Source: Clostridia bacterium (GTDB lineage Bacteria; Bacillota; Clostridia; Oscillospirales; Acutalibacteraceae). From it: 64,000 nt of DNA. Where the stretch lies: NCBI GenBank assembly GCA_017448285.1, contig JAFSLT010000070.1:3501-67500 (forward strand), read 5' to 3'. The position numbers and the translations under genes were made by a program. Below are positions 1,633-57,858 of this stretch, piece after piece. Each line of letters opens with the position of its first letter. Within the stretch, counting starts at the first letter, position 1. The notes beneath the pieces are model-generated. The model was not told the origin of the DNA, made no database searches, and worked only from the letters and a program-made list of their open reading frames with translations.

Positions 1633-3174
1633 ATGAATTACGATTTGAATAAATATAAATTTTCTATGCTTGATAATATTTTTCAAGGGATTCAAGAAAT
1701 CCCTGTAGATTGCGATTTGACCCTTCCTGATTATTGCCCGGATATCGGAAAAATTTTAAAATGCCAAATTTCAGCAGGAGTAAATTCACGTAATATTTCG
1801 GGCGACCAGCTAAATATCGAAGGCACTTCTGTGCTCGAACTTTTGTATTCTGATTTAGAAAAAAATACGATAAGATGCTTTAAAACCGAAATTCCATTCT
1901 CGCAAAATTTGAATATTAAAAACTCTTCGCAATTTTCGGTAGCTACTTTTGATATAAAAAGAGAATATATAAATTGCCGAGCAATTTCACCCAGGAGAAT
2001 CGATGTTCACGGCGCTTTTTCATTAAAAGTAAACGTTTTTGGTAGCAAAGAACACGAAGTTACTAACGACATTGCTTCGGATGATATAAAGCAAAAAAAG
2101 AGTGACATTTCTTTTAGTCAGTTGAATTCTTTGCTCCAGCATCAAGTTAATATCAGCGAAATTTTAGATTTGGGAACAGACAAAAATGCTCCGGAATTTA
2201 TTATAAAATCTGATTTAAGTGTTAGTGACATAAATTGCAGCGCGAGCGACGAGAGAATAAACATAAAAGGCAAAGTTAATATTAAAATTTTATATATTAG
2301 TGATATAGAAACCGGCAAAACAGATTCGGTCGAAAATGAAATACCAATAAACGAAACTATAGATGCTCCAGGCGTTATGGACGATAATATTTTTATGATT
2401 ATACCTGAAATTATTTATCACGAAGAAAAAATTTCGGCAGATTCTGAAAGTATCGGAAATTTAATAAACGAGGAGCTTAAAATTATGATGACGATTTTTG
2501 CGTTCCAGGACGATGAAACTAAAATTATTGACGACGCTTATTCAACTGATTATGAAACCGAACTTTTATGTGAAAATTTTAAGTTTAAAAAATTTTCCGG
2601 CGTTTTAAACGAGAATATAATTCACAAAGAAATAATCAAAAATTCTGATAATAAATTTTTTAAAATTTTAGATGTCTGGCCAAGTTCATATTCTGCTAAA
2701 TTTTCTAAAAAAGATGAAAATCCAGGCTTTGAAGGCAAAATAAACCTGTGCATTTTGGCGATAAATCCTGATTTTGTACCGTTTTATATCGAAAGAGAAA
2801 TAAAATTTTCAAAAGAATTATATGAAAATATAGATTCTAAAATCTCAGATTCTTATATATTTATGTCAATTCCGCAAATTGATTATAAAATTATTAATAA
2901 CGACGAAATCGAAGTTAAGTTAAATATTCAAATAACTGCAAATATTTACAATGAGTCAGAATATAATTTAGTTGAAAATATAACTTCAAACGAAGCTTCG
3001 CCAAAAATTAAAGATTTAAAAACAGCTCTTACGATATATTACGCCAACGCAGGAGAAAAAATCTGGGATATCGCCAAGCATTATGGCACTACTATGGAAA
3101 AAATTCAGGACGAAAATGATATTGATTTTGAAGTTTTGGATTCCGACCGCGCGATTTTAATACCAATTTATTAA
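1633..3174 (+). CDS. SipL/SpoVID-like spore morphogenetic protein (DUF3794-type repeats plus C-terminal LysM)
   Basis: 513 aa. The C terminus LTIYYANAGEKIWDIAKHYGTTMEKIQDENDI...ILIP is a LysM motif. RBS aggag is present. The gene lies directly upstream of spoIVA. Confidence 0.6.
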   Translation: MNYDLNKYKFSMLDNIFQGIQEIPVDCDLTLPDYCPDIGKILKCQISAGVNSRNISGDQLNIEGTSVLELLYSDLEKNTIRCFKTEIPFSQNLNIKNSSQFSVATFDIKREYINCRAISPRRIDVHGAFSLKVNVFGSKEHEVTNDIASDDIKQKKSDISFSQLNSLLQHQVNISEILDLGTDKNAPEFIIKSDLSVSDINCSASDERINIKGKVNIKILYISDIETGKTDSVENEIPINETIDAPGVMDDNIFMIIPEIIYHEEKISADSESIGNLINEELKIMMTIFAFQDDETKIIDDAYSTDYETELLCENFKFKKFSGVLNENIIHKEIIKNSDNKFFKILDVWPSSYSAKFSKKDENPGFEGKINLCILAINPDFVPFYIEREIKFSKELYENIDSKISDSYIFMSIPQIDYKIINNDEIEVKLNIQITANIYNESEYNLVENITSNEASPKIKDLKTALTIYYANAGEKIWDIAKHYGTTMEKIQDENDIDFEVLDSDRAILIPIY

Positions 3175-3208
3175 TATTTAATAATAATTAAGTAATTAGG
3201 AGAAAAAA

Positions 3209-4687
3209 ATGGAAGAGAAGAATATTTACAGCGACATTGCAAAACGAACCGGTGGAGATATATACATAGGAGTTGTAGGGCCTGTAAGAACTGGTAAATC
3301 TACTTTTATTAAAAAATTCATGGATTCTCTTGTTATTCCGAATATTTTAGATAGTCGCCAGCGCGATAGAACTATCGACGAACTCCCGCAATCTGCAGGC
3401 GGAAAAACAATAATGACAACAGAGCCCAAGTTTATTCCCGAAGATTCAGTCGAAGTCGATATCGATGGATGCGCAAAATTCAGAGCAAGAGTTATCGATT
3501 GTGTAGGCTATATCGTGCCAAGTGCAATTGGCTATATTGAAAACGAAATCCCCAGAATGGTAATGACACCATGGTTTAAAGATGAAATTCCGTTTGATAA
3601 AGCTGCCGAAATCGGCACAAAAAAAGTCATAACCGACCATTCAACGATCGGCTTGGTCATAACTACTGATGGCTCAATAAGTGATATTGAAAGAAGCGAA
3701 TACGAAGACGCCGAACAAAGAGTTATTGAAGAATTAAAAGAAATCAATAAGCCGTTTATTACGTTATTAAATAGTATCGACCCGTATTCGAGCGAAACTC
3801 TTGCGCTTTCAGAATACATGCGCAAAAAATATAATATTCCTGTAATTCCAGTCAACTGTATGGATTTAAACGAGACTCAAATAAAAGAAATTTTGGGCAA
3901 AGTTTTGTATGAGTTCCCGATAAGAGAAGTAAAAATAGACTTCCCGAGATGGCTTTTAAACCTTGAAAAAGACCACTGGCTCAAATCTGATATATTTTCA
4001 AGCATAAAAGATTCTTCTCAAAAAGCGCATAAAATAAGAGAAGCAAAAAATATCGCTCAAGAAATCTGCGTTTCGGATTTTGTGAAAAATTCAGATTTAG
4101 ATTTAGTCGATTTAGGGACCGGAACCGCAAATTTAAGAGTAAGTTTAAAAGATAATTTATTTTATAAAATTTTGGGCGAAAAAACAGGAATAGAAATAAA
4201 AAACGAATGCGAACTTATGAACCACATGATGGAGCTTTCGAGTTTAAAACAAAAATACGAGCGGATCGGCGCTGCTTACGACGACGTCAACGAATCAGGC
4301 TACGGAATTGTGATGCCCGTTCTTGATGAATTAAAACTCGATGAACCTGAAATCATAAAACAAAGCGGAAAATACGGCATAAGACTCAAAGCCTCGGCGC
4401 CGGCAGTACATCTTTTAAAAACAAATATTACCACCGAAATCACGCCGATAGTCGGCTCGGAACAGCAATCTGAAGAACTCGTAACTTATTTACTCAAAGA
4501 ATTCGAAGAAAATCCTGCAAAGATTTGGGAATCCAATATATTCGGCAAATCTCTGCATTCTCTTGTAAACGAAGGTCTGCACAATAAACTTTATCGCATG
4601 CCAAACGACGCAAGGGAAAAACTCAAGCAAACTATCGAACGCATCATAAACGAAGGCTGCAACGGACTGATTTGTATAATTTTATAA
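3209..4687 (+). CDS. spoIVA: Stage IV sporulation protein A
   Basis: 492 aa. N-terminal Walker A GVVGPVRTGKSTFIKKFM. Length and overall sequence are typical of SpoIVA. Confidence 0.9.
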   Translation: MEEKNIYSDIAKRTGGDIYIGVVGPVRTGKSTFIKKFMDSLVIPNILDSRQRDRTIDELPQSAGGKTIMTTEPKFIPEDSVEVDIDGCAKFRARVIDCVGYIVPSAIGYIENEIPRMVMTPWFKDEIPFDKAAEIGTKKVITDHSTIGLVITTDGSISDIERSEYEDAEQRVIEELKEINKPFITLLNSIDPYSSETLALSEYMRKKYNIPVIPVNCMDLNETQIKEILGKVLYEFPIREVKIDFPRWLLNLEKDHWLKSDIFSSIKDSSQKAHKIREAKNIAQEICVSDFVKNSDLDLVDLGTGTANLRVSLKDNLFYKILGEKTGIEIKNECELMNHMMELSSLKQKYERIGAAYDDVNESGYGIVMPVLDELKLDEPEIIKQSGKYGIRLKASAPAVHLLKTNITTEITPIVGSEQQSEELVTYLLKEFEENPAKIWESNIFGKSLHSLVNEGLHNKLYRMPNDAREKLKQTIERIINEGCNGLICIIL

Positions 4688-6943: not shown

Positions 6944-9334
6944 ATGAGCAAGCATATGGATAAAAATTTTGACGATAACCATGATTTTAATTACGATACC
7001 GATGAAAATTCTGAAAAATTGGGGCTTTTGATGCCGGTGATTGCGCTCAGAGGTATGGTGATGTTTCCGAGCATGGTGCTCCATTTTGATGTTGGGCGAA
7101 AAAGGTCTGTTTTGGCACTTGAAAATGCGCTGAAAGGTGACCAAAATATTTTTGTTGTTTCTCAAAATGATGTTAGAGTAGACGAGCCCGAATCTGACAA
7201 TATTTATAAAATCGGCGTGATATCTAAAGTTAAGCAAATTTTGCGTCAGCCGGGCGGTATTATACGTGCTTTGGTTGAGGGCAGTCAGCGCGGTGTTATA
7301 GTCAAAGTTGAAAAATCAAATCCTTTTATTAGGGCGCAAGTTAAGTATTTAAACGAATTAATTGAACCTAAAGATTTATCTTCTACGGCACTTGAAAGGA
7401 AAGCTAAAGAATTATTTATGGAGTATTTAAGCATTGCTCCAAGGGTTTCGCCGGATTTGGTAATTGCTGTGCATACTATGAAAGAACTTGGTCAAATTGC
7501 TGATTTTATAGCTTCTAATATACCACTAGATTTTGAAGATAAACAAAAAATTTTGGAAGAAATGAGCGACAGAAAGCGTTTGGACCTTGTTGTTTCACAT
7601 TTAGCAAAAGAACTTGATATATTAAAAATTGAAAATAAACTGGCAGTTCAGCTCAGGAATAGCATCGATAGGCGTCAAAAAGAATATTTTTTACGCGAGC
7701 AAATGAGAGTGATTTCAGAGGAACTCGGCGAAGAAGATGACCCCAGAGCAGATGCCAGAAAATATATGAAAAAATTAAAGGCATTAAAGCTCAGCCGGCA
7801 AAATTTTGATAAACTTTCGGAAGAAATAAATCGTTTTGCGCGCACACCGTTTGCAGCGGGGGAATCGAGCATCATCAGAAATTATATTGATTTTTGCCTG
7901 GGACTGCCGTGGAATAAAACTTCGAAAGATAATAATGATATATTAAAAGCAGAAGAAATTTTAAATAAAAGCCATTATGGTTTAGAGCTTGTAAAAGAGC
8001 GAATTATCGAATTTTTATCGGCAAGGCAGCTTTCTAAGTGTTCAAGTTCTCAAATATTATGCTTAGTAGGACCGCCGGGAGTTGGGAAAACTTCGGTTGC
8101 TAAATCTTTAGCAAAAGCCATGGGGAAAAAATTTTTAAGAATTTCTTTGGGCGGCGTTAACGATGAATCGGAAATTCGAGGGCACAGAAAAACTTATGTT
8201 GGCGCTATGCCGGGCAAAATTATGAGTTCGATTAAAAAAGTTAATGTTAAAAATCCGTTTTTTTTACTCGATGAAGTTGATAAATTATCAAAAAATTATC
8301 ACGGCGACCCTGCGGCAGCACTTTTGGAAGTTTTGGATTCTGAGCAAAATAAAGAGTTTAACGACCATTTTGTGGATTTGGATTTTGATTTGAGCGAAGT
8401 CTTTTTTGTCGCGACTGCAAACGATATTTCAAATATTCCGAGCCCGCTTTTGGATAGATTAGAAATAATAAACTTATATAGCTATACTCATGATGAAAAA
8501 TTTCATATCGCAAAAGAGCATTTAATCACGAAACAAATGAAAAAAAATGGATTGAATTCCAGAAGTTTTAAAATTGATGACGAATGTATTGATATTTTGA
8601 TTGAAAATTATACGCGCGAAGCGGGAGTAAGAGAACTTGAGCGAAAACTTGCTTCACTGATGCGAAAATCGGCAAAATTAATAGTAACCGGCGAGAAAAA
8701 AAAGGTTGTTATTAATCCTGAAAATTTAGAAGAAATGCTCGGGCCGAAAAAATACAAAAGGGAAGATATTTCTAAAGAAGGCGAGGTCGGAATCGTCAGA
8801 GGCCTTGCCTGGACGGCAGTCGGAGGCGAAACACTGCCTATCGAAGTTTCTCTCATGAAGGGCAAAGGCAAGGTTCAAATAACAGGTTCGCTCGGCAAAG
8901 TCATGCAGGAATCCGCTCAGCTTGCCGTGAGTTATATTAGGAGTAATTCGCAAAAACTCGGTATAGATAAAGACTTTTATAAAAATACTGATATTCACAT
9001 TCATGCTCCCGAGGGTGCTGTGCCCAAAGATGGACCTTCTGCAGGAGTTACCATGACAACTGCGCTTGTTTCAGCACTTAGCAATACTCCTGCGCGCCGG
9101 GACGTTGCAATGACAGGTGAGATTACTTTAAAAGGCAAAGTATTGCCGATTGGCGGTTTAAAAGAAAAAACTATGGCGGCTTACAGAGCAGGGGTTAAGA
9201 CTGTTATAATTCCTGAGGGCAATAAAAGTGATTTGAGTAAAGTTGATAAAGTTGTAAAAGAAGGCATCGATTTTATTATTGCTGATAATTTAGATACAGT
9301 TTTAGAAAATGCACTGGAGAAACATAAAACTTAA
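6944..9334 (+). CDS. lon: ATP-dependent Lon protease
   Basis: 796 aa with an N-terminal LON domain, Walker [10 protein letters not shown] and protease motif PKDGPSAG. Confidence 0.95.
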
Positions 9335-14494: not shown

Positions 14495-14764
14495 AAGTTT
14501 AATTGTACGAATTTTATAGTAATGGGTCAAATAATAAATATGAATATACGTTAGATTTCTTTCGAAACTAAAACATAAGATCAAAATTACAAATGGAGGA
14601 AATAAAATTAAATCCAAACAAAAAATGTTTCTACAATTTCGATATTTCTCAGAAATAATTTTAAAACATTTAATAAAACCTATGATATTTTCGATTTTAA
14701 CTCTTTGACTGGAAATACGACGGTTTTCTAGTTTATCCGAAGGAGTTAATTTTTGATTTTTAAA

Positions 14765-14819
14765 TAGACTCCTTTCGAAACTGGTAGCAGATATTCTCTC
14801 CGGTGGTCGCTGGAGAGAA
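14765..14819. repeat. PE copy with one TTTCGAAAC arm
   Basis: tagactcctttcgaaactggtagcagatattctctccggtggtcgctggagagaa. Confidence 0.85.
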
Positions 14820-14874
14820 CTATAGATATATAATTTATAATATTATTTTAATTGATTATAGTGTTTTTATAACA

Positions 14875-15378: not shown

Positions 15379-15410
15379 AAAATTTCATTTATTTATTAAA
15401 AATTATACAT

Positions 15411-15464
15411 TAGACTTCTTTCGAAACCAACGATTATATTCTCTCCGGCGATACCGAAGAGAAT
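15411..15464. repeat. PE copy with one TTTCGAAAC arm
   Basis: tagacttctttcgaaaccaacgattatattctctccggcgataccgaagagaat. Confidence 0.85.
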
Positions 15465-15471
15465 TTTAAAC

Positions 15472-17220
15472 CTAATTTTCTAAATTATCAGTTAATTCTT
15501 CCGGTAATTTTTTATCAAATTTTGAATAAAATTCTTTTATGTTTTTAGTTTCATTTCCCCAAAGTTCAGGGTCAACTTCGAGTATTTTTTTCAAATCATC
15601 GCTCGATATGTCAAGGCCGCTAATGTCTATATCTTCAATCTTTGGAACTAATCCTATCGGCGAATCAACAGCACCTATTTTATTATCTAGTCGCTTAACA
15701 ATCCAATCAAGAACCCGAATATTTTCTTCGAATCCCGGCCAAATAAATTTGCCATCATCATCAGTCCTAAACCAGTTAACGCCAAAAATTTTTGGTGCAT
15801 TTTCGCCGAGTTTTTCTCCAATATCTAGCCAGTGCTCGAAATAATCCGCCATATTATAACCGCAAAATGGTAGCATTCCAAACGGGTCATGCCTTAAAAC
15901 TCCGATTTTTCCGTCGGCTGCGACCGTAGTTTCAGAAGACATTATCGAACCTACAAAAACTCCGTGATTCCAATCTCGAGATTCAAAAACCAGTGGCGTT
16001 AATTTTGCTCTTTTTACGCCTAAAATTATCGCCGAAATCGGAACGCCTTTGGGGTTATCAGCTTCTTTACTCAGGCACGGGCAGTTTGCCAAAGGAGCCG
16101 CAAACCTGCTGTTCGGATGCGCACCTTTTGTACCCATATCAGCATTCCAAGCGTTTCCAAGCCAATCAGTGGCATTTTCAGGAGGATCATCGTCCATACC
16201 CTCCCACCAAACCGTTTTGTTATCTTCGTTTAAAACAACGTTTGTAAAAATAGTATTTTTCATTCCTGTTTGTAAGGCATTCGGATTAGTTTTTTTACTT
16301 ATTCCGGAACATGCTCCAAAAACGCCGTTTTCGGGATTAATCGCCCAAAGTCTGCCATCTTCGCGGACTTTTAGCCATGCAATATCATCGCCTACGCAGT
16401 AAATTTCGTAACCCTCTTTGATAAATTTTTCGCCAGGTTTTAGCATCGCCAAATCTGTTTTTCCGCAACCCGAAGGTAGCGCCGCACAAATATATTTTAT
16501 TTCATCATTATAAGGTGTTTTTATACCAAAAATTGCCATATGTTCCGCAAGCCAGCCTTCATTTTTGCCCATGCAGGAGCCGAGCCTTAAAGCCAAACAT
16601 TTTTTGCCCAAAAGAGCATTCCCACCATATACCGAATTGACTGAAATTATGGTATTTGATTCCGGAAAATGGCATATATAGCGCTCCTCAGGATCGCATG
16701 AACATGAGCAGTGAATACATCTCGTCCAGTTATCTCCCGCTTTGTTAAAGGCAATCGAAATTTTTTTGCCAACACGCGTCATAGTCATCATGCTAAGTGC
16801 TACATATACCGAATCTGTAATTTCAACTCCCAGTTTGTGAAAATCAGAGTCGACATTCCCCATTGAAAAAGGAACAACATACATAACCCTGCCTTTGTAG
16901 CTCCCGGCAGCTATACTTTTAAGCTTTTCCATTGCTTCACTAGGTTCCCACCAGTTATTCGTAACCCCTGCATTAATTTTTTCCTTGCAGCATATAAAAG
17001 TCCTGTTTTCAACCCTTGCAACGTCGCTTTTATCAGACCTTCTCAAATAACATCCCGGCAGGAGTTCCTGATTTAATTTAATTAACTCGCCAATTCCGCA
17101 AGCAACGTTATGCAAAAGCTCAATTTGTGCCTTTGAACCATCAATCCAAACAACGTCTTCGGGTGTTAGCCATTCACTCATTTCTTTTACCCAAGCTCTA
17201 ACATGTTCATTTCTTAACAT
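15472..17220 (-). CDS. pck: Phosphoenolpyruvate carboxykinase (GTP)
   Basis: Kinase-1a loop PSGCGKTDLAML and GTP-PEPCK-type length. Start set at ATG 17220 (MLRNEH) after AGGAG. Confidence 0.85.
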   Translation of the reverse strand: MLRNEHVRAWVKEMSEWLTPEDVVWIDGSKAQIELLHNVACGIGELIKLNQELLPGCYLRRSDKSDVARVENRTFICCKEKINAGVTNNWWEPSEAMEKLKSIAAGSYKGRVMYVVPFSMGNVDSDFHKLGVEITDSVYVALSMMTMTRVGKKISIAFNKAGDNWTRCIHCSCSCDPEERYICHFPESNTIISVNSVYGGNALLGKKCLALRLGSCMGKNEGWLAEHMAIFGIKTPYNDEIKYICAALPSGCGKTDLAMLKPGEKFIKEGYEIYCVGDDIAWLKVREDGRLWAINPENGVFGACSGISKKTNPNALQTGMKNTIFTNVVLNEDNKTVWWEGMDDDPPENATDWLGNAWNADMGTKGAHPNSRFAAPLANCPCLSKEADNPKGVPISAIILGVKRAKLTPLVFESRDWNHGVFVGSIMSSETTVAADGKIGVLRHDPFGMLPFCGYNMADYFEHWLDIGEKLGENAPKIFGVNWFRTDDDGKFIWPGFEENIRVLDWIVKRLDNKIGAVDSPIGLVPKIEDIDISGLDISSDDLKKILEVDPELWGNETKNIKEFYSKFDKKLPEELTDNLEN

Positions 17221-17234
17221 AAAAAATACTCCTA

Positions 17235-18698
17235 TTATTTTTTTAAATTTAAAACGCAATTTTTAAAATCTGTGCCGCGCTCTTCAAAATTGCTGTACAT
17301 ACCAAAACTGGCGCAAGCCGGTGAAAGCAAAATTACGTCGTTGTTAAAAGCATTATGATACGCAAAATTTACGGCATTTTTCATCGAATCAGCTTTAAAA
17401 ATTTTCGGCTTTTTAAAATTTTTGCAATTTTTAACGCAATTTTCAATTTTTTCAGCTGTCTGCCCGATAAGAATTAAAATTTTTACTTTATCACAAATTT
17501 TTTCGCCAAGCTCTTTAAAATCCAAATTTTTGTCATAACCGCCTGCAATTAATATAATACTATTTTCAAAAATAGAAAATGCACCTTTTAAAACGCGATT
17601 TGGTGTTGATGCTATTGAATCATCATAATAACGAGCGCCACCAATTTCGGCCACAAATTCAATCCTGTGCGGTAGTCCCTTAAAATTATTTGCAACAAAT
17701 TTTATGTTTTCTAAACTTACAAAATTATAGCAAGCCGAAATTGCAGCCATAAAATTTTCTATGTTATGGATGCCGGGAATTTTTATTTCATTTTTATGAA
17801 TAATTTTAAAAACTTTGCCATTTTCACAAAAATTTATGTATCCGTCTTCATCAAGGTAGCACCCATCACTAATTTTAGATTTTACGCTAAAAAATCTTTT
17901 TTTTCTAGTAGCTTTTTCAGAAATTTCATTCAAAATTTTGCAATCAAAATTGGAAACGAGCAAATTATCATAGCTGCTTTTGAAATAATTCATTCTCTCC
18001 GGCCGATGACCGGAGGAAAGCGTGGTTTTCAAAGGTAAAACGTTTTCATTTTGTGAAAGTGCTGGATTTTTTCCCTGGTCTTTAAAAATATTAATTTTCG
18101 AATCCACATACTCATCAAAATTTTTGTGCCAATCCAAGTGATTTTCCGAAATATTTGTAATAACTGCAACTTTTGGGTTTATCTTGCAAGTCATCAGCTG
18201 AAAGCTCGAAAGCTCCAAAACCACAAAATCTTTATCAGAAATTTTGCATATCTGCGGCAAAATAGGCGTGCCGATATTTCCGCCCAAAAAAACTTTTTTG
18301 CCTGAACTTTTTAATAGTTCGTAAATTATCGAAGTCGTAGTAGATTTTCCATCGCTGCCAGTGATTGCAAATACATTTTCGGTAGGGCAAAATTTTAAAA
18401 AAAATTCAATTTCGGAAGATAAAATACAACTTTTATCTTCGATTAAATCCGGTCGAATTCCCGGAGATCTGAAAATTAAATCGCAATTTAAATTTTTTAG
18501 GTAATTTTCGCCAAAAATAAATTCTGGTTTTGAATTTTTAAATTTTATATTTAAATCACAATTTTTTTGGTCTCGAACCTGAAAATTTATCGCGAGTTCA
18601 TCCAAAAATTTGGCAACTGCTTGGTTGCTTATCCCAAAACCCAAAAGCACGATTTTTTTGTCTTTTAAATATTCAAAAATTTTTTCTTTTAAAATCAA
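17235..18698 (-). CDS. murD: UDP-N-acetylmuramoylalanine--D-glutamate ligase carrying an in-frame PE-derived insertion
   Basis: GFGISN...ITGSDGKSTT...NHLDWH motifs. TTG start lies 6 nt after AGAGG. The segment ...LPLKTTLSSGHRPERMNYFKS... is encoded by a PE hairpin. Confidence 0.85.
   Translation of the reverse strand: MILKEKIFEYLKDKKIVLLGFGISNQAVAKFLDELAINFQVRDQKNCDLNIKFKNSKPEFIFGENYLKNLNCDLIFRSPGIRPDLIEDKSCILSSEIEFFLKFCPTENVFAITGSDGKSTTTSIIYELLKSSGKKVFLGGNIGTPILPQICKISDKDFVVLELSSFQLMTCKINPKVAVITNISENHLDWHKNFDEYVDSKINIFKDQGKNPALSQNENVLPLKTTLSSGHRPERMNYFKSSYDNLLVSNFDCKILNEISEKATRKKRFFSVKSKISDGCYLDEDGYINFCENGKVFKIIHKNEIKIPGIHNIENFMAAISACYNFVSLENIKFVANNFKGLPHRIEFVAEIGGARYYDDSIASTPNRVLKGAFSIFENSIILIAGGYDKNLDFKELGEKICDKVKILILIGQTAEKIENCVKNCKNFKKPKIFKADSMKNAVNFAYHNAFNNDVILLSPACASFGMYSNFEERGTDFKNCVLNLKK
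17977..18034. repeat. PE copy located inside the murD reading frame
   Basis: cttttgaaat...ttctctccggccgatgaccggaggaaag...gttttcaaag. The hairpin has inverted arm-like flanks. Confidence 0.75.
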
Positions 18699-20974: not shown

Positions 20975-21409
20975 CACACTATACACCCAATAAAATAAAA
21001 ATATTTTTTTAACAGATAAATTTTTCAAAAATTTCAGTAAAACCGGCTCAAATAAATTGTTTTAAATTGCTCTCTATTGAGGTTCCTGAACTATTATACA
21101 GATATACTTGATTTACGTCAATGCTCTTACTGAAATAAAAATCCCTGAAAACACACTATGGCTAAAATCGTAAATCTAAACGTTTTTCTAAATCTCTCTC
21201 CTTCCTTGATTTTACTTTGCAATTACTCTTTTACAGGCATTTTTTATTTACAATAAATTTGGTACTTCCTTAATTTTGGCAATACTGCCGGAAAGATTAA
21301 TAAGATAACATTATATCGAAGAAAATATTTCAATTTACTCAGAGTTGTGGCATTATTTTTAAATTTGTATATTATAAGAGAGCATAACTTTTGTTTTGGC
21401 GGTAAAATT

Positions 21410-23711: not shown

Positions 23712-24395
23712 ATGAAGAAATTTGGTAGAGATAAAGTCGCGTTATTTCTTGCGTGTGCGTCAGTTTTAGGTAGTAAAACCCATGCTATGGATAAAAACAA
23801 AGCTCAAAACCCGCAAATCGCTGTGGAAGTAAGGAAGAAGGCAAGTTCTTGTTCTAAAGAAATACCTAATTGGTTAAAGATTTTAACGGATATTATGGAT
23901 ATTTTAGGAGTTGCTTCGGCAGTTGAGCTTTACAACGAAATTATGGGCGGAATTTATGGTACAAATTGGTATTTGGGCAAATATTCTATTGTGAATTATC
24001 TTAGACAGCAAAGTGAACATTTAGATGCTTTATTGAAAAAATTTAAAGATGCATCTAAAGAATCCACAAAATCCAATGAATATTTTTTGAAACGCAGGCA
24101 ATTTTTAATTGATATTTATACAAGTGTTTTTAAAGGACAATATAATTTTATTACTAAAGATAAAGGGCAAATTGAAAAACTAAAGTCAATTATAAGTTTT
24201 ATTCTTGAACCAAATATTGCAAAAAATATAAAAGTTCGACTTCATGAATACGGTAAAAACAATCTAGCATACAGATTCTGTATTGATGAGAAAGAAGAGT
24301 TTGAATTGTTAAAGAGAAAAAATAGTGCTTTTTTATTTTTTAATAATGAAGGAGTTCTTAAAATCGATTTGCAAGAAGTCAAACACAAAAATTAA
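23712..24395 (+). CDS. Leader-family protein (function unknown)
   Basis: Leader MKKFGRDKVALFLACASVLGSKTHA. The NEIMGG...GKYSIVNYL block is paralogous to the gene at 34924. Confidence 0.7.
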   Translation: MKKFGRDKVALFLACASVLGSKTHAMDKNKAQNPQIAVEVRKKASSCSKEIPNWLKILTDIMDILGVASAVELYNEIMGGIYGTNWYLGKYSIVNYLRQQSEHLDALLKKFKDASKESTKSNEYFLKRRQFLIDIYTSVFKGQYNFITKDKGQIEKLKSIISFILEPNIAKNIKVRLHEYGKNNLAYRFCIDEKEEFELLKRKNSAFLFFNNEGVLKIDLQEVKHKN

Positions 24396-34469: not shown

Positions 34470-34543
34470 AAGCATTGTGGCTTGGAAACGCGGGTTCATC
34501 TTGAATTTATCTCGAATTTCGAGGAAAAGCGAGGTGATGAAAT

Positions 34544-34660
34544 ATGTTATTTACTATTCTTAATTTATTGTTTAATATAATTAAATTTATTATACAAGTA
34601 AAAAAACAGAAAAATAACAACCGCGATCGCAACGTGGTTGTTATTATAGTTAAACTTTAA
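34544..34660 (+). CDS. Small hydrophobic peptide (type I toxin candidate, 38 aa)
   Basis: RBS gaggtga. Product is MLFTILNLLFNIIKFIIQVKKQKNNNRDRNVVVIIVKL. Confidence 0.4.
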   Translation: MLFTILNLLFNIIKFIIQVKKQKNNNRDRNVVVIIVKL

Positions 34661-34689
34661 ACTTAATAATCGGCCCGCGACCAAGCCAC
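34598..34689 (-). ncRNA. Candidate antisense (antitoxin) RNA, copy 2
   Basis: Lies downstream of the minus-strand promoter at 34696..34724. A 10-bp stem (34613..34622 with 34636..34645) is followed by tttctgttttttt on the minus strand. Confidence 0.4.
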
Positions 34690-34695
34690 ACTTTT

Positions 34696-34724
34696 ATTAT
34701 ATCATAAAATTTTGAAAATATCAA
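34696..34724 (-). promoter_or_regulatory. Convergent sigma-A-type promoter (antisense RNA, copy 2)
   Basis: On the minus strand: TTGATA, 17 bp spacer, TATAAT. Confidence 0.55.
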
Positions 34725-34734
34725 CTCAAGTTTT

Positions 34735-34790
34735 TTCTCCGGCGTCACCGGAGGAAGCATTTCCGATTTTAATTTTTAAGTTTCGAAAAA
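34735..34790. repeat. PE copy with one long arm
   Basis: ttctccggcgtcaccggaggaagcatttccgattttaatttttaagtttcgaaaaa. Confidence 0.9.
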
Positions 34791-37850: not shown

Positions 37851-37937
37851 GATTTATGTAAACCATTTCTAAGAATCTATGGCCATTATTTCTCACTTAC
37901 ATACTTTGTTAAAACGTTTGTAAATACAAGTTCTAAC

Positions 37938-38279
37938 ATACAAGCAAACCTATAAGCCGAGTTCTGTCTATGTGATCATCTATCTTGGCCTGAAATTACT
38001 CTCAAGCTCACTGCCACCTCTGAAAACAGCCGAGCAAGCTTTTTTCGTTTTCCTCGCGGTGTTGCTCCGGGTAGGGTTTACGTAGCAAGCCAGTTGCCTG
38101 ACCTCCTGGTGAGCTCTTACCTCGCCTTTCCACCCTTGCCTTTCGGCGGTTACTTTCTGTCGCACTATCCCTAAGGTTTCCCTCGGCGGCGGTTAACCGT
38201 TACCCTGCTCTTTGGAGCTCGGACTTTCCTCACTTTTATACTTTCGTAATCAAAAGCGCGATCACCCGGTCTGCTCAAA
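37938..38279 (-). ncRNA. rnpB: RNase P RNA (bacterial type B-like)
   Basis: The minus strand contains GAGGAAAGTCCGAGCTC and ACAGAACTCGGCTTATAG, the universal conserved regions. It is a GC-rich island. P1 pairs gagcagacc with ggtttgctt. Ends are approximate to about 10 nt. Confidence 0.85.
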
Positions 38280-38514: not shown

Positions 38515-38535
38515 TTTTCCGGCGTCGCCGGAAAG
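38515..38535. repeat. PE copy
   Basis: ttttccggcgtcgccggaaag. Confidence 0.85.
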
Positions 38536-56744: not shown

Positions 56745-57858
56745 ATGTCATTTTTTGGCAATTTAAAAGATCTTTTCGGATTAAACAAATCAAAAAAAGA
56801 TGAGCGTACCAAATTAAACACGTTAGCTAATCAAATTCAAGATTTTATTAAAAAACAATCAAACTATTTAAGTGATTCAAACGCAGAAGAAAGCTATGGT
56901 AATTGGTGTATATTTTACATTTCGATTGCCGATAGTTTATACACTATAGCTAATGAAATATGTAAAACTAGAGAGCACGAACATTCAGATTTGGCTAATA
57001 AATTAAAATCTAATCAGATACTTAATGATAATGAAATCAATAAAATTATTAAAGTTATTGCTCCCCAACAAATTGCTAAACAAGATTCTATATTAAATTT
57101 ATTGAAAGGCAAAAATGCTGATGAAAAGAAAAAACTTATAGAAAATATATCCAAATGGTTTAAAAAATTCCAAAATGTAAAAGGAGGCCATTTTACAGTT
57201 TGGACGAGCAAAATTAAAAAGGCTATCGATGATTTAACTAAAATTGATGCCAGCAAAACTGCAAATGTTTTTATTGAAAAAATAAATGTAAAACAAAAAG
57301 AAAATGAAGCGAAAGAAAAAAATAAAGTTGAAAAACATAATGAAATGTACGACAAAGAACATTTTGAAAAAATGAATAAAGAAATGAAAGATATTGAAAA
57401 AATAAAAGACGAAGAGAAAAAGAATAAAAAGCAAATTACTCTTAATAACTGCAATTGAAAATTACAAAAGCAAAACATTAAATAAATATATTAATTTTTT
57501 AACGCAGCAAGATATTAATAAAATAAAAGAAAGCTTTTTATGGTATTTAAAACCAAGTAGGGTAGATTCTAAAAACGGCCAAATGAATTTAAATGAAGAC
57601 TGTATTAAAAATTCTCTTACTGAATTAAGAACAATATATTCAAACAATAAGGAATTTGAAAAAATAGATATTGTTGCTCATAATCAAGGTGATAATTATA
57701 AAGGATTTAAAATTACTATTCAAAACCCTAAATATGAATTTAGCATTTTAGAATCTAATTCAAAAATTGCCTTACAAGATATTCAAGGAAATGGTGCAAA
57801 TTTTGACACTACTCAAAATAAAAAATGGATAAAAATAAGAAACGAAAAAAAAGAATAA
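56745..57858 (+). pseudogene. Hypothetical gene split by a frameshift in an A-rich run
   Basis: Frame 0 (MSFFGNLKDLFG...) stops at 57458. An open, protein-like frame +1 runs 57406..57858. The two overlap at A5 runs (57417..57421 and 57426..57430). Confidence 0.6.

Follow-up and report, generated by a model that had tools for sequence, protein, structure and literature searches.

The murD gene in a 64-kb stretch of Clostridia DNA (contig JAFSLT010000070.1; the whole stretch is called the window below) carries a lineage-specific, in-frame insertion that is partly homologous to a palindromic repeat element resident in the same genome. We consider it likely that a segment derived from this element moved into murD without disturbing the reading frame, and has been tolerated since then as a translated loop of the enzyme. 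The host lineage consists of uncultured rumen Clostridia of low G+C content (32%). The genomes closest to the window are metagenome-assembled genomes (MAGs) of uncultured Clostridia from rumen-type samples, and the nearest named relatives, as judged by MurD, are Oscillospiraceae and Ruminococcus. The lineage DNA set used in our comparisons comprises the window and related loci, 267 kb altogether.

An in-frame insertion in murD

The open reading frame (ORF) that hosts the insertion is MurD (see Table 1 for its position and for those of the other features). It has Pfam matches to Mur_ligase_M, Mur_ligase_C and MurD_N, and the MurD chains in the PDB match it at E=4e-58. HMMER breaks each of these PDB alignments into two and leaves the query residues ~207-241 unaligned. 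The translation of the ORF includes ...NENVLPLKTTLSSGHRPERMNYFKSSYDNLL..., and the stretch ...LPLKTTLSSGHRPER... is predicted to be encoded in the region of the insertion. The first-pass annotation of the window had reported a 487-aa ORF with a hairpin and inverted flanks lying in frame at 17977-18034; the ORF list bears out the length, and the sequence and its translation agree on the hairpin, which is G+C-rich. The perfect sub-palindrome CTCCGG-N7-CCGGAG at 17997-18015 is the sole match to this pattern in the window, with 0.01 matches expected per 64 kb. The flanks cttttgaaat (17977-17986) and gttttcaaag (18025-18034) pair in the predicted fold as a 7-bp outer stem around the hairpin, and the nested fold has an energy of -21.6 kcal/mol (z=-2.3) for the murD copy in the window and -26.3 kcal/mol (z=-4.0) for the murD copy in the related locus L004.

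We aligned the window MurD with 29 homologues, ranging from 97% down to 46% identity (alignment A1). The 33-residue block is found only in the window MurD and in three proteins that are 96-97% identical to it (P0001-3), and in none of the 26 others (46-78% identity). These read straight through as ...IFKNQxx/DNLLV..., which agrees with the earlier remark that the extra segment lies where MurD proteins normally run on. The solved MurD structures of five other bacteria do not have the 33-aa segment either. The nearest relatives without the block are P0004 and P0005, with 69-70% identity by BLASTP and 77-78% in A1. Their contigs (L001 and L003) have the same gene order as the window, YmdB-MurD-PEPCK, and hence the two proteins are orthologues. 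As predicted for a lineage-specific insertion, these two syntenic loci, which lack the element in murD, also lack the peptide segment.

In the DNA, the filled site has the sequence ...CAGGGAAAA/AATCCAGCAC...GCAGCTAT/GATAATTTG... and the empty site has ...CAGACGCGA/GATAATTTG.... When the empty loci L001 and L003 are compared with the window by blastn, the alignment ends at 18075-18082 and restarts exactly at 17969. Taken together, the blastn breaks and the comparison of filled and empty sites define the insertion as 17970-18068. The in-frame extra segment reported earlier is thus real, with a size of 33 aa (99 nucleotides, nt) and not 58 nt. Parsimony indicates that the 99 nt were inserted on the branch that gave rise to this species-level clade. 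Five independent assemblies share the insertion, namely the window, L004, L005/L010, L006 and L007, which have 1-4 private substitutions, and a misassembly, suggested earlier as a possible source of error, is not what we found. The four further filled assemblies comprise three ENA metagenome assemblies and one from Logan, and one of the four is also a GTDB representative MAG.

A nested palindromic element in the lineage

The element has a core with the consensus TTCTCTCCGGC-N3-4-GCCGGAGAGAA, of which the window holds 17 copies in the repeat family D1, and between 22 and 33 depending on the regular expression used; with the stringency the count varies from 17 to 29. On a rough gene map of 48 ORFs, which takes 83% of the window as coding, 28 of the 29 cores (~0.45 cores per kb) are intergenic and the murD copy alone lies within a gene, as had been stated from the first reading of the sequence. 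About 20 of the 28 intergenic cores are located no more than ~70 nt from the 3' end of a gene.

An iterative nhmmer search over the window and the related loci gave 10 full-length copies. The full-length element measures ~92-99 nt (nine of the ten copies have 89-99 nt and one has 116 nt), and consists of an arm TAGACTTCTTTCGAAAC, a ~13-nt spacer, the core hairpin TCTCTCCGGC-N3-4-GCCGGAGAGA, a ~22-nt spacer reading ...ATTTAATTTTTAA / ...TTTAATTTTTAA, and a second arm GTTTCGAAAGAAGTCTA. The terminal arms are 17 nt long and are inverted repeats of each other in the 10 full-length copies, and the complete element forms a nested palindrome when folded, with -31 to -34 kcal/mol (z ~-6). Partial copies, having the core alone or the core plus one arm, are numerous; the 267 kb of lineage DNA contain 68 significant profile matches. 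The two intergenic copies nearest to murD, at 15406-15480 and 14761-14836, were matched by nhmmer with E=2.4e-11 and E=1.1e-13, respectively. The element is also present where murD is empty, as in L001 (copy at 7285-7388, E=1e-27) and in locus L012 of RGIG9287 (98 bits).

Scanning 185,579 species genomes for the exact pattern, we found the arms together with the core only in three uncultured Clostridia MAGs, i.e. SRR1222429_bin.86, SRR11784281_bin.58 and RGIG9287 (from water-deer rumen). Streptomyces, Nocardioides and other genomes of high G+C content also match the exact pattern, but have no arms there, and we took these matches as chance hairpins. Rfam gave no match to the element or to the murD region, whether the gathering threshold or E<=0.05 was applied.

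Two other identities were considered for the repeat and rejected. For a DNA-uptake-type motif, single arms are not scattered, and 24 of the 29 TCTCCGGC 8-mers lie within hairpin cores, indicating that the hairpin is the unit. For intrinsic (Rho-independent) terminators, most cores, including that in murD, have no T-run. Terminator-like sites between 9000 and 27000 number 11 against a shuffle expectation of 11.6, and four of the 11 are calls on two elements.

Relation of the murD insertion to the element

We built a profile hidden Markov model from the ten full-length intergenic copies, with the murD copy excluded. The insertion aligns with this profile over the profile positions 17-65, its arm, short spacer and core following one another as in the canonical element, and the alignment reads CTGCTTTTGAAA----TAAT--TCATTCTCTCCGGC..GCCGGAGA. 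The L004 orthologue scores 15.1 bits (E=1.8e-3 in the 267 kb, and 4e-6 in a search restricted to the insertion region), with a second nhmmer alignment on its gene-sense strand at 13.4 bits. For the window copy the score is 10.6 bits, with E=1e-4 in the restricted search. Profile matches located deep in long ORFs of the 267 kb reach 47.5 bits in the gene dnaX and 10.5-15.1 bits in the murD copies, with the noise at 8.5 bits or less.

The details of the alignment point in the same direction. The terminal TAG of the arm begins 1 nt from the boundary, which was defined independently, and the left flank (17970-17995), taken by itself, is similar to the canonical arm with p=0.002-0.004, using random window segments as control. 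The left arm of the murD core is identical to the consensus TTCTCTCCGGC at 11/11 positions, and its right arm is CCGGAGGAA. The L004 copy is consensus-like, with a perfect 12-bp stem and a 3-nt loop; in the window copy a C-to-T change opens the top of the stem. The total of 99 nt is close to the 92-99 nt of the full-length element. From these comparisons ~47-58 nt of the insertion, covering the left arm, the spacer, the core and perhaps the proximal inverted arm, are demonstrably element-derived.

In-frame copies in dnaX and the use of reading frames

The consensus element is open in only two of the six frames, one per orientation: forward frame 1 gives the peptide RLLSKPVIYILSGAAGESISDLIFKFRKKS and reverse frame 2 gives DFFRNLKIKSEMLSPAAPERIYITGFERSL. 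We scanned the profile matches for ORFs that span them and found a copy (E=1.7e-13, 47.5 bits) within a 522-aa dnaX ORF. The dnaX copies of L028, L064 and L062 (Table 1) sit in frame in the DnaX linker. The DnaX of L064 is 79% identical by BLASTP and 84% identical in the protein alignment A3, and its copy reads ...VIDISSGGAGESTSDLIFKSQKNS..., which is forward frame 1. The dnaX orthologue in L063 (74% identity) is empty of the element. The murD copy has the reversed orientation: its ...PERMNYFKSSY corresponds to PERIYITGFERSL of reverse frame 2, and the part 5' of the enlarged loop is in another frame.

The genes with in-frame copies are thus ~2 among the ~68 significant copies in the 267 kb, and the presence of elements in frame within essential genes, although rare, has recurred in this lineage. 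The first-pass annotation had proposed a scan for further in-frame copies by a peptide signature, SGxxPE. Such copies do occur, in dnaX, and the signature varies with orientation and frame, being LSG.AGE in dnaX and LS..PER in murD. We set aside other stop-free frames over elements (window 14549-14836 and L028 1469-1509), where the element is upstream of the start, and we did not count as intragenic L044 3-37 and L023, where the element is at the 5' end of an open frame. Searching 5.8 billion proteins with the two element peptides concatenated returned one 53-aa ORF and missed even the known dnaX cases, so that the lack of further matches carries no information.

Table 1. Location of the murD insertion, its parts, and copies of the palindromic element in the window and in related dnaX genes.
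Feature	Position	Strand	Description
murD ORF (UDP-N-acetylmuramoyl-L-alanine:D-glutamate ligase)	17235..18698	minus	487 aa; host of the insertion
Lineage-specific in-frame insertion	17970..18068	minus	99 nt = 33 codons, residues 211-243, NPALSQNENVLPLKTTLSSGHRPERMNYFKSSY
Terminal arm	17971..17986	+	TAGCTGCTTTTGAAAT against canonical TAGACTTCTTTCGAAAC; nhmmer to the 10-copy profile
Core hairpin TTCTCTCCGG-CCGATGA-CCGGAGGAAAG	17993..18020		28-mer ttctctccggccgatgaccggaggaaag
Proximal inverted arm-like segment GTTTTCAAAG	18025..18034	+	Pairs with 17978-17986; 8 nt from the core
Insertion remainder	18035..18068		Diverged long-spacer half and outer arm, or unrelated filler
Nearest intergenic copy to murD	15406..15480	+	Just downstream of PEPCK; arm, spacer, core
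Other near intergenic copy	14761-14836		Arm, spacer, core
Reference full-length intergenic copy	61353..61451	+	Arm, 13-nt spacer, core, 22-nt spacer, arm; nhmmer E=1.9e-28
dnaX copy in L028	2286-2356	minus (ORF 1889-3457)	GTDB representative MAG of the species
dnaX copy in L064	1106-1190 (gene positions)		85 element positions, 69.8 bits, E=5e-22; nearly intact
dnaX of L062	1110-1387 (gene positions)		586 aa; 3-4 tandem core-derived segments

The insertion in the MurD protein

The sequence comparisons indicate that the murD with the insertion is functional, since outside the insertion the ratio of nonsynonymous to synonymous substitution rates (dN/dS) is 0.10-0.23, with dS up to 0.13 among four distinct filled alleles, and all of the 82 invariant columns of A1 are retained (82/82).

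We predicted the 3D structure by AlphaFold2 using A1, with a mean predicted local distance difference test score (pLDDT) of 85.6 and a predicted template modelling (TM) score of 0.81. The only segment below 50 in pLDDT is residues 213-242, between a helix (194-202) and a strand (246-250). Comparison of the model with MurD crystal structures by Foldseek gave TM scores of 0.85-0.88, with 4uag at 0.88 and a root-mean-square deviation of 2.8 Å. The insertion site is 10 residues past the invariant Lys201 (in our reading the counterpart of the active-site lysine that is carbamylated in E. coli MurD), at the turn where the central domain enters its next strand. The earlier suggestion of a surface loop agrees with this position between helix and strand and with its being the sole low-confidence stretch; the surface location itself, together with the disorder and the neutrality of the loop, is what we infer from the model.

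Five sites are polymorphic in the insertion among the four filled alleles, and all of them fall in 17 nt (gene-sense nt 47-63), which cover one hairpin arm and the loop. Three of the five are nonsynonymous (T/M, S/F and S/Y). This clustering, in small numbers, is consistent with a hairpin that is decaying and weakly constrained.

The empty-site proteins P0004 and P0005 (L001 10001-11431; L003 4056-5510) have an unrelated Asn/Lys-rich run of their own, SCENNNKNKNNKN, in A1 columns 153-163. As this is at another position, MurD in the clade tolerates loops at more than one site.

Proposed origin of the insertion

Our analysis suggests the following course of events. The genome houses a dense, nested palindromic family that resembles transposable elements of the miniature inverted-repeat type (MITEs). 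One copy, or a sequence with at least one arm, a short spacer and the core, would have entered murD on the branch of this species, probably through transposition-like mobility of the element; capture by recombination or repair may have been the route instead. As 99 nt is a multiple of three and contains no stop codon, the murD ORF was kept open. The segment would then have survived by being translated into 33 residues, which probably form a disordered loop at the surface and are tolerated by MurD. A frame filter could have operated on the survivors, with the dnaX copies using one of the open frames and murD the other one from ...PER... onward.

A number of observations weigh against this account. 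Some of them concern how much of the insertion comes from the element. The 10.6 bits of the window copy barely exceed the intragenic noise floor of ~8.5 bits, and the murD copy differs from the canonical element in a spacer shorter by 6-7 nt and in a longer loop. The 52 nt at 18017-18068 do not stand out when compared with the canonical long-spacer half (p=0.45, and p=0.35 for the terminal 25 nt), and a blastn-short search with them over the 267 kb of lineage DNA returned their own orthologues alone. At the far end of the insertion 12 of 18 ungapped positions weakly resemble the second arm, by eye only. The remaining ~40-50 nt hence represent a half of the element that has diverged strongly, or else DNA of unrelated origin, and a full-length insertion is not proven. 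The expectation that the boundaries of the insertion would match those of the element is consequently borne out at one end, where the arm starts 1 nt inside 17970, and finds no support over these ~40-50 nt, which are not demonstrably element-derived.

Other observations concern the mobility and the fate of the segment. There is no consistent target-site duplication at the 10 full-length copies or at murD, where the flanks are AT-rich. No autonomous partner element was found, in work that included no search aimed at transposases. Among the syntenic loci of 94-98% identity we found no clean filled/empty pair of an element, only complex differences. No empty-site murD of 70-96% identity occurs among the homologues, and therefore the event is not finely datable. 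The low pLDDT over the insertion arises partly from the shallow alignment there, and translation of the segment is itself something we infer from the reading frame.

Alternative explanations

The loop might have become functional, for example as a surface for interactions or in regulation, and be kept by selection. We regard this exaptation as unlikely. It would account for every clade member that was sampled having kept the loop with no indel (dS between them up to 0.13), and for 28 of the 33 codons being invariant at the nucleotide level, but the sampled divergence is too shallow to reveal constraint. Moreover, the three nonsynonymous changes among the five variable sites contrast with the remainder of the gene, where dN/dS is 0.10-0.23, though the numbers are small, and the model shows no ordered structure for the loop.

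Somewhat less credible still is that the likeness to the element hairpin is coincidental or secondary. The loop would then have arisen by slippage, by duplication, or by capture of unrelated DNA in repair, with a short piece that happens to be element-like or that was converted through recombination with the abundant repeat. Half of the insertion has no detectable homology to the element, and the window copy scores low with the profile, as such an origin would have it. It leaves unexplained, however, that the arm, the spacer and the core follow the order and orientation of canonical copies, with the arm 1 nt from the boundary, that the hairpin pattern is expected only 0.01 times per 64 kb, and that the total length matches that of a full-length element. 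The almost intact copy of the family in dnaX also shows that insertion into genes does happen.

It is quite improbable that the inserted segment remains untranslated, being removed like an intron or bypassed by the ribosome to give a MurD of normal length. Hairpins feature in known bypass events, e.g. phage T4 gene 60 is a case of programmed bypass with a hairpin, and the nested hairpin predicted for the murD segment is indeed stable, at -21.6 to -26.3 kcal/mol. Neither an open frame nor a length divisible by three is needed if the segment is removed, which argues against this explanation, as the insertion has exactly 33 stop-free codons in AT-rich DNA. From the base composition we estimate a chance of ~0.07 for the frame to be open and 1/3 for a multiple of three. 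The dnaX copies are open too, in the only open frame that the element has in that orientation, and no intron or ribozyme in Rfam matches the segment at the gathering threshold or at E<=0.05. An intein was rejected as well, since 33 aa would be far below the size of inteins.

The last two explanations hardly merit belief. An assembly artefact, in which a repeat-induced chimera put the element into murD, might be imagined in view of the many repeats of the element (~0.45 cores per kb) and of the wrong joins that repeats can cause in metagenome assembly, but the five assemblies come from different samples and assemblers and carry 1-4 private substitutions each, the murD sequence is in frame on either side, and the murD copy has diverged from all the others and so was not recruited from another locus. 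That the segment is ancestral to MurD of the clade and was lost in the relatives is equally far-fetched: nothing specific speaks for it apart from there being one close outgroup level (~70% identity), and the segment is found in none of the 26 homologues (46-78% identity) or the MurD structures of five other bacteria and contains a recognisable core of a mobile repeat.

Comparison with known palindromic repeats

The first-pass annotation had compared the murD hairpin with the Rickettsia palindromic elements (RPEs). As far as the summary of Ogata et al. 2000 (Science 290:347) and 2002 (Genome Res 12:808) in PMC10969869 goes, the RPEs (RPE-1 to RPE-10) lie in frame within numerous housekeeping genes, at sites compatible with the fold of the protein, and Ogata et al. 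2002 called the in-frame palindromes 'a unique but recurrent feature'. Judged by that summary, the RPEs and the present element share several features: both are short (~100-150 nt), palindromic and present in many copies; some copies of each lie in frame in unrelated housekeeping genes and are read as an extra peptide (predicted here from the sequence); and the extra segments are compatible with the fold and occur in several genes per lineage, here murD and dnaX. The differences are also clear. The hosts of RPEs are Alphaproteobacteria, whereas the present host belongs to Clostridia and is not an obligate intracellular bacterium as far as known. The in-gene frequency is far lower here (~2 genes for ~68 copies), and the architecture, with a G+C-rich core hairpin nested in AT-rich inverted arms, is unlike that of RPEs. 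Considering the host phylum and the base composition, sequence homology to RPEs is unlikely. The resemblance noted earlier therefore stands for the behaviour of the element, with in-frame copies in murD and dnaX, and as for homology it is an analogy only, the host not being Rickettsia.

MITEs provide a second comparison. Occasional in-frame intragenic copies have been described for ERIC, pneumococcal BOX, Coxiella QMITE1/2 and Anabaena MITEs (PMC10969869, PMC5896051). Like MITEs, our element is small, non-coding and multi-copy, has terminal inverted repeats, and is mostly intergenic, with rare copies that give rise to in-frame fusions or insertions inside genes. In contrast to MITEs, neither a target-site duplication nor a parent insertion sequence has been identified for it. 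Most of the Coxiella cases affect hypothetical genes and 3' ends, whereas the copies here are at internal sites of essential core genes.

The core alone resembles the repetitive extragenic palindromic (REP) elements, which are mobilised by REP-associated tyrosine transposases (RAYTs) and whose 20-40-nt palindromes have a GTAG or CGTC head that defines two superfamilies (Di Nocera et al. 2013, PMC3733652). Both are G+C-rich imperfect palindromes of 20-30 nt, very abundant, extragenic and often located near the 3' ends of genes. Unlike REP elements, however, the core here has no GTAG/CGTC head, being flanked by TATTC...GAGAA with CGTC only in the variable loop of some copies, and it lies inside a larger element of ~95 nt with 17-nt inverted arms. 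None of the papers covered by our literature search describes this element or in-frame palindromes in Clostridia.

Other observations on the window

Several differences among the loci of the lineage are located next to elements. The synteny of the window with L004 (96-97% identical) ends at 14865 and at 24375, each adjoining an element, and 21122-21286 belongs to the same list. In L005, which is 94% identical, a gene of an energy-coupling factor (ECF) transporter takes the place of the window element 15406-15480 (region 15380-15480). The repeats may mark points of rearrangement or replacement. Two tandem duplications were found, at 61079-61424 (173 nt x2, 90% identity) and 41332-41601 (135 nt x2, 87% identity). 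Each of their units holds an element core, and hence local duplication also multiplies the element.

A pair of related segments, 675-935 and 34476-34734, lie 33.8 kb apart and share two patches of 61-68 nt with 87-90% identity within a span of ~260 nt. Both end in the ribosome-binding-site-like GAGGTGAT, the second one adjoins an element core at 34736, and Rfam has no match for either of them. An 8-nt microsatellite, AATGTACT, is repeated ~7 times at 1278-1360.

A bacterial RNase P RNA of class A is encoded at 37937-38277 on the minus strand (254.9 bits), with an element core within ~240 nt of it at 38516. The two tRNA genes, at 44285-44373 and 59153-59225, both on the minus strand, also have element cores near them (at 44188 and 58982, respectively). 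A/G-rich short periodic repeats of the Lys/Glu coding type occur at 57272-57428 and 59910-59973, and a 30-nt period at 60288-60384; all three are probably repetitive protein-coding sequence.

Implications

In-frame palindromes in housekeeping genes have been treated as a hallmark of Rickettsia, and they are now seen in another phylum, in a host with another lifestyle and in two essential genes. To our knowledge, only sporadic MITE cases of in-frame insertion have been known beyond Rickettsia. Whether the wider picture is right we consider evenly balanced, namely that protein-coding palindromes are not peculiar to Rickettsia, that an unrelated family in free-living rumen Clostridia repeatedly colonises essential genes (murD once, and dnaX with a later tandem expansion to 3-4 core-derived segments in one lineage), that the survivors are limited to two open frames, and that the family is an ongoing source of loop and linker peptides. 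If this is true, it would be a second and independent system for the mutual accommodation of selfish palindromes and protein folds.

The filled and empty orthologous sites offer a second natural experiment on which positions of a protein tolerate ~30 extra residues, on the frame filtering of the survivors and on their later change, such as the decay of the hairpin in murD and the tandem expansion in dnaX. Repeat-derived segments of this kind can mislead annotation and the alignment of orthologues, and they are useful as lineage markers in rumen metagenomes.

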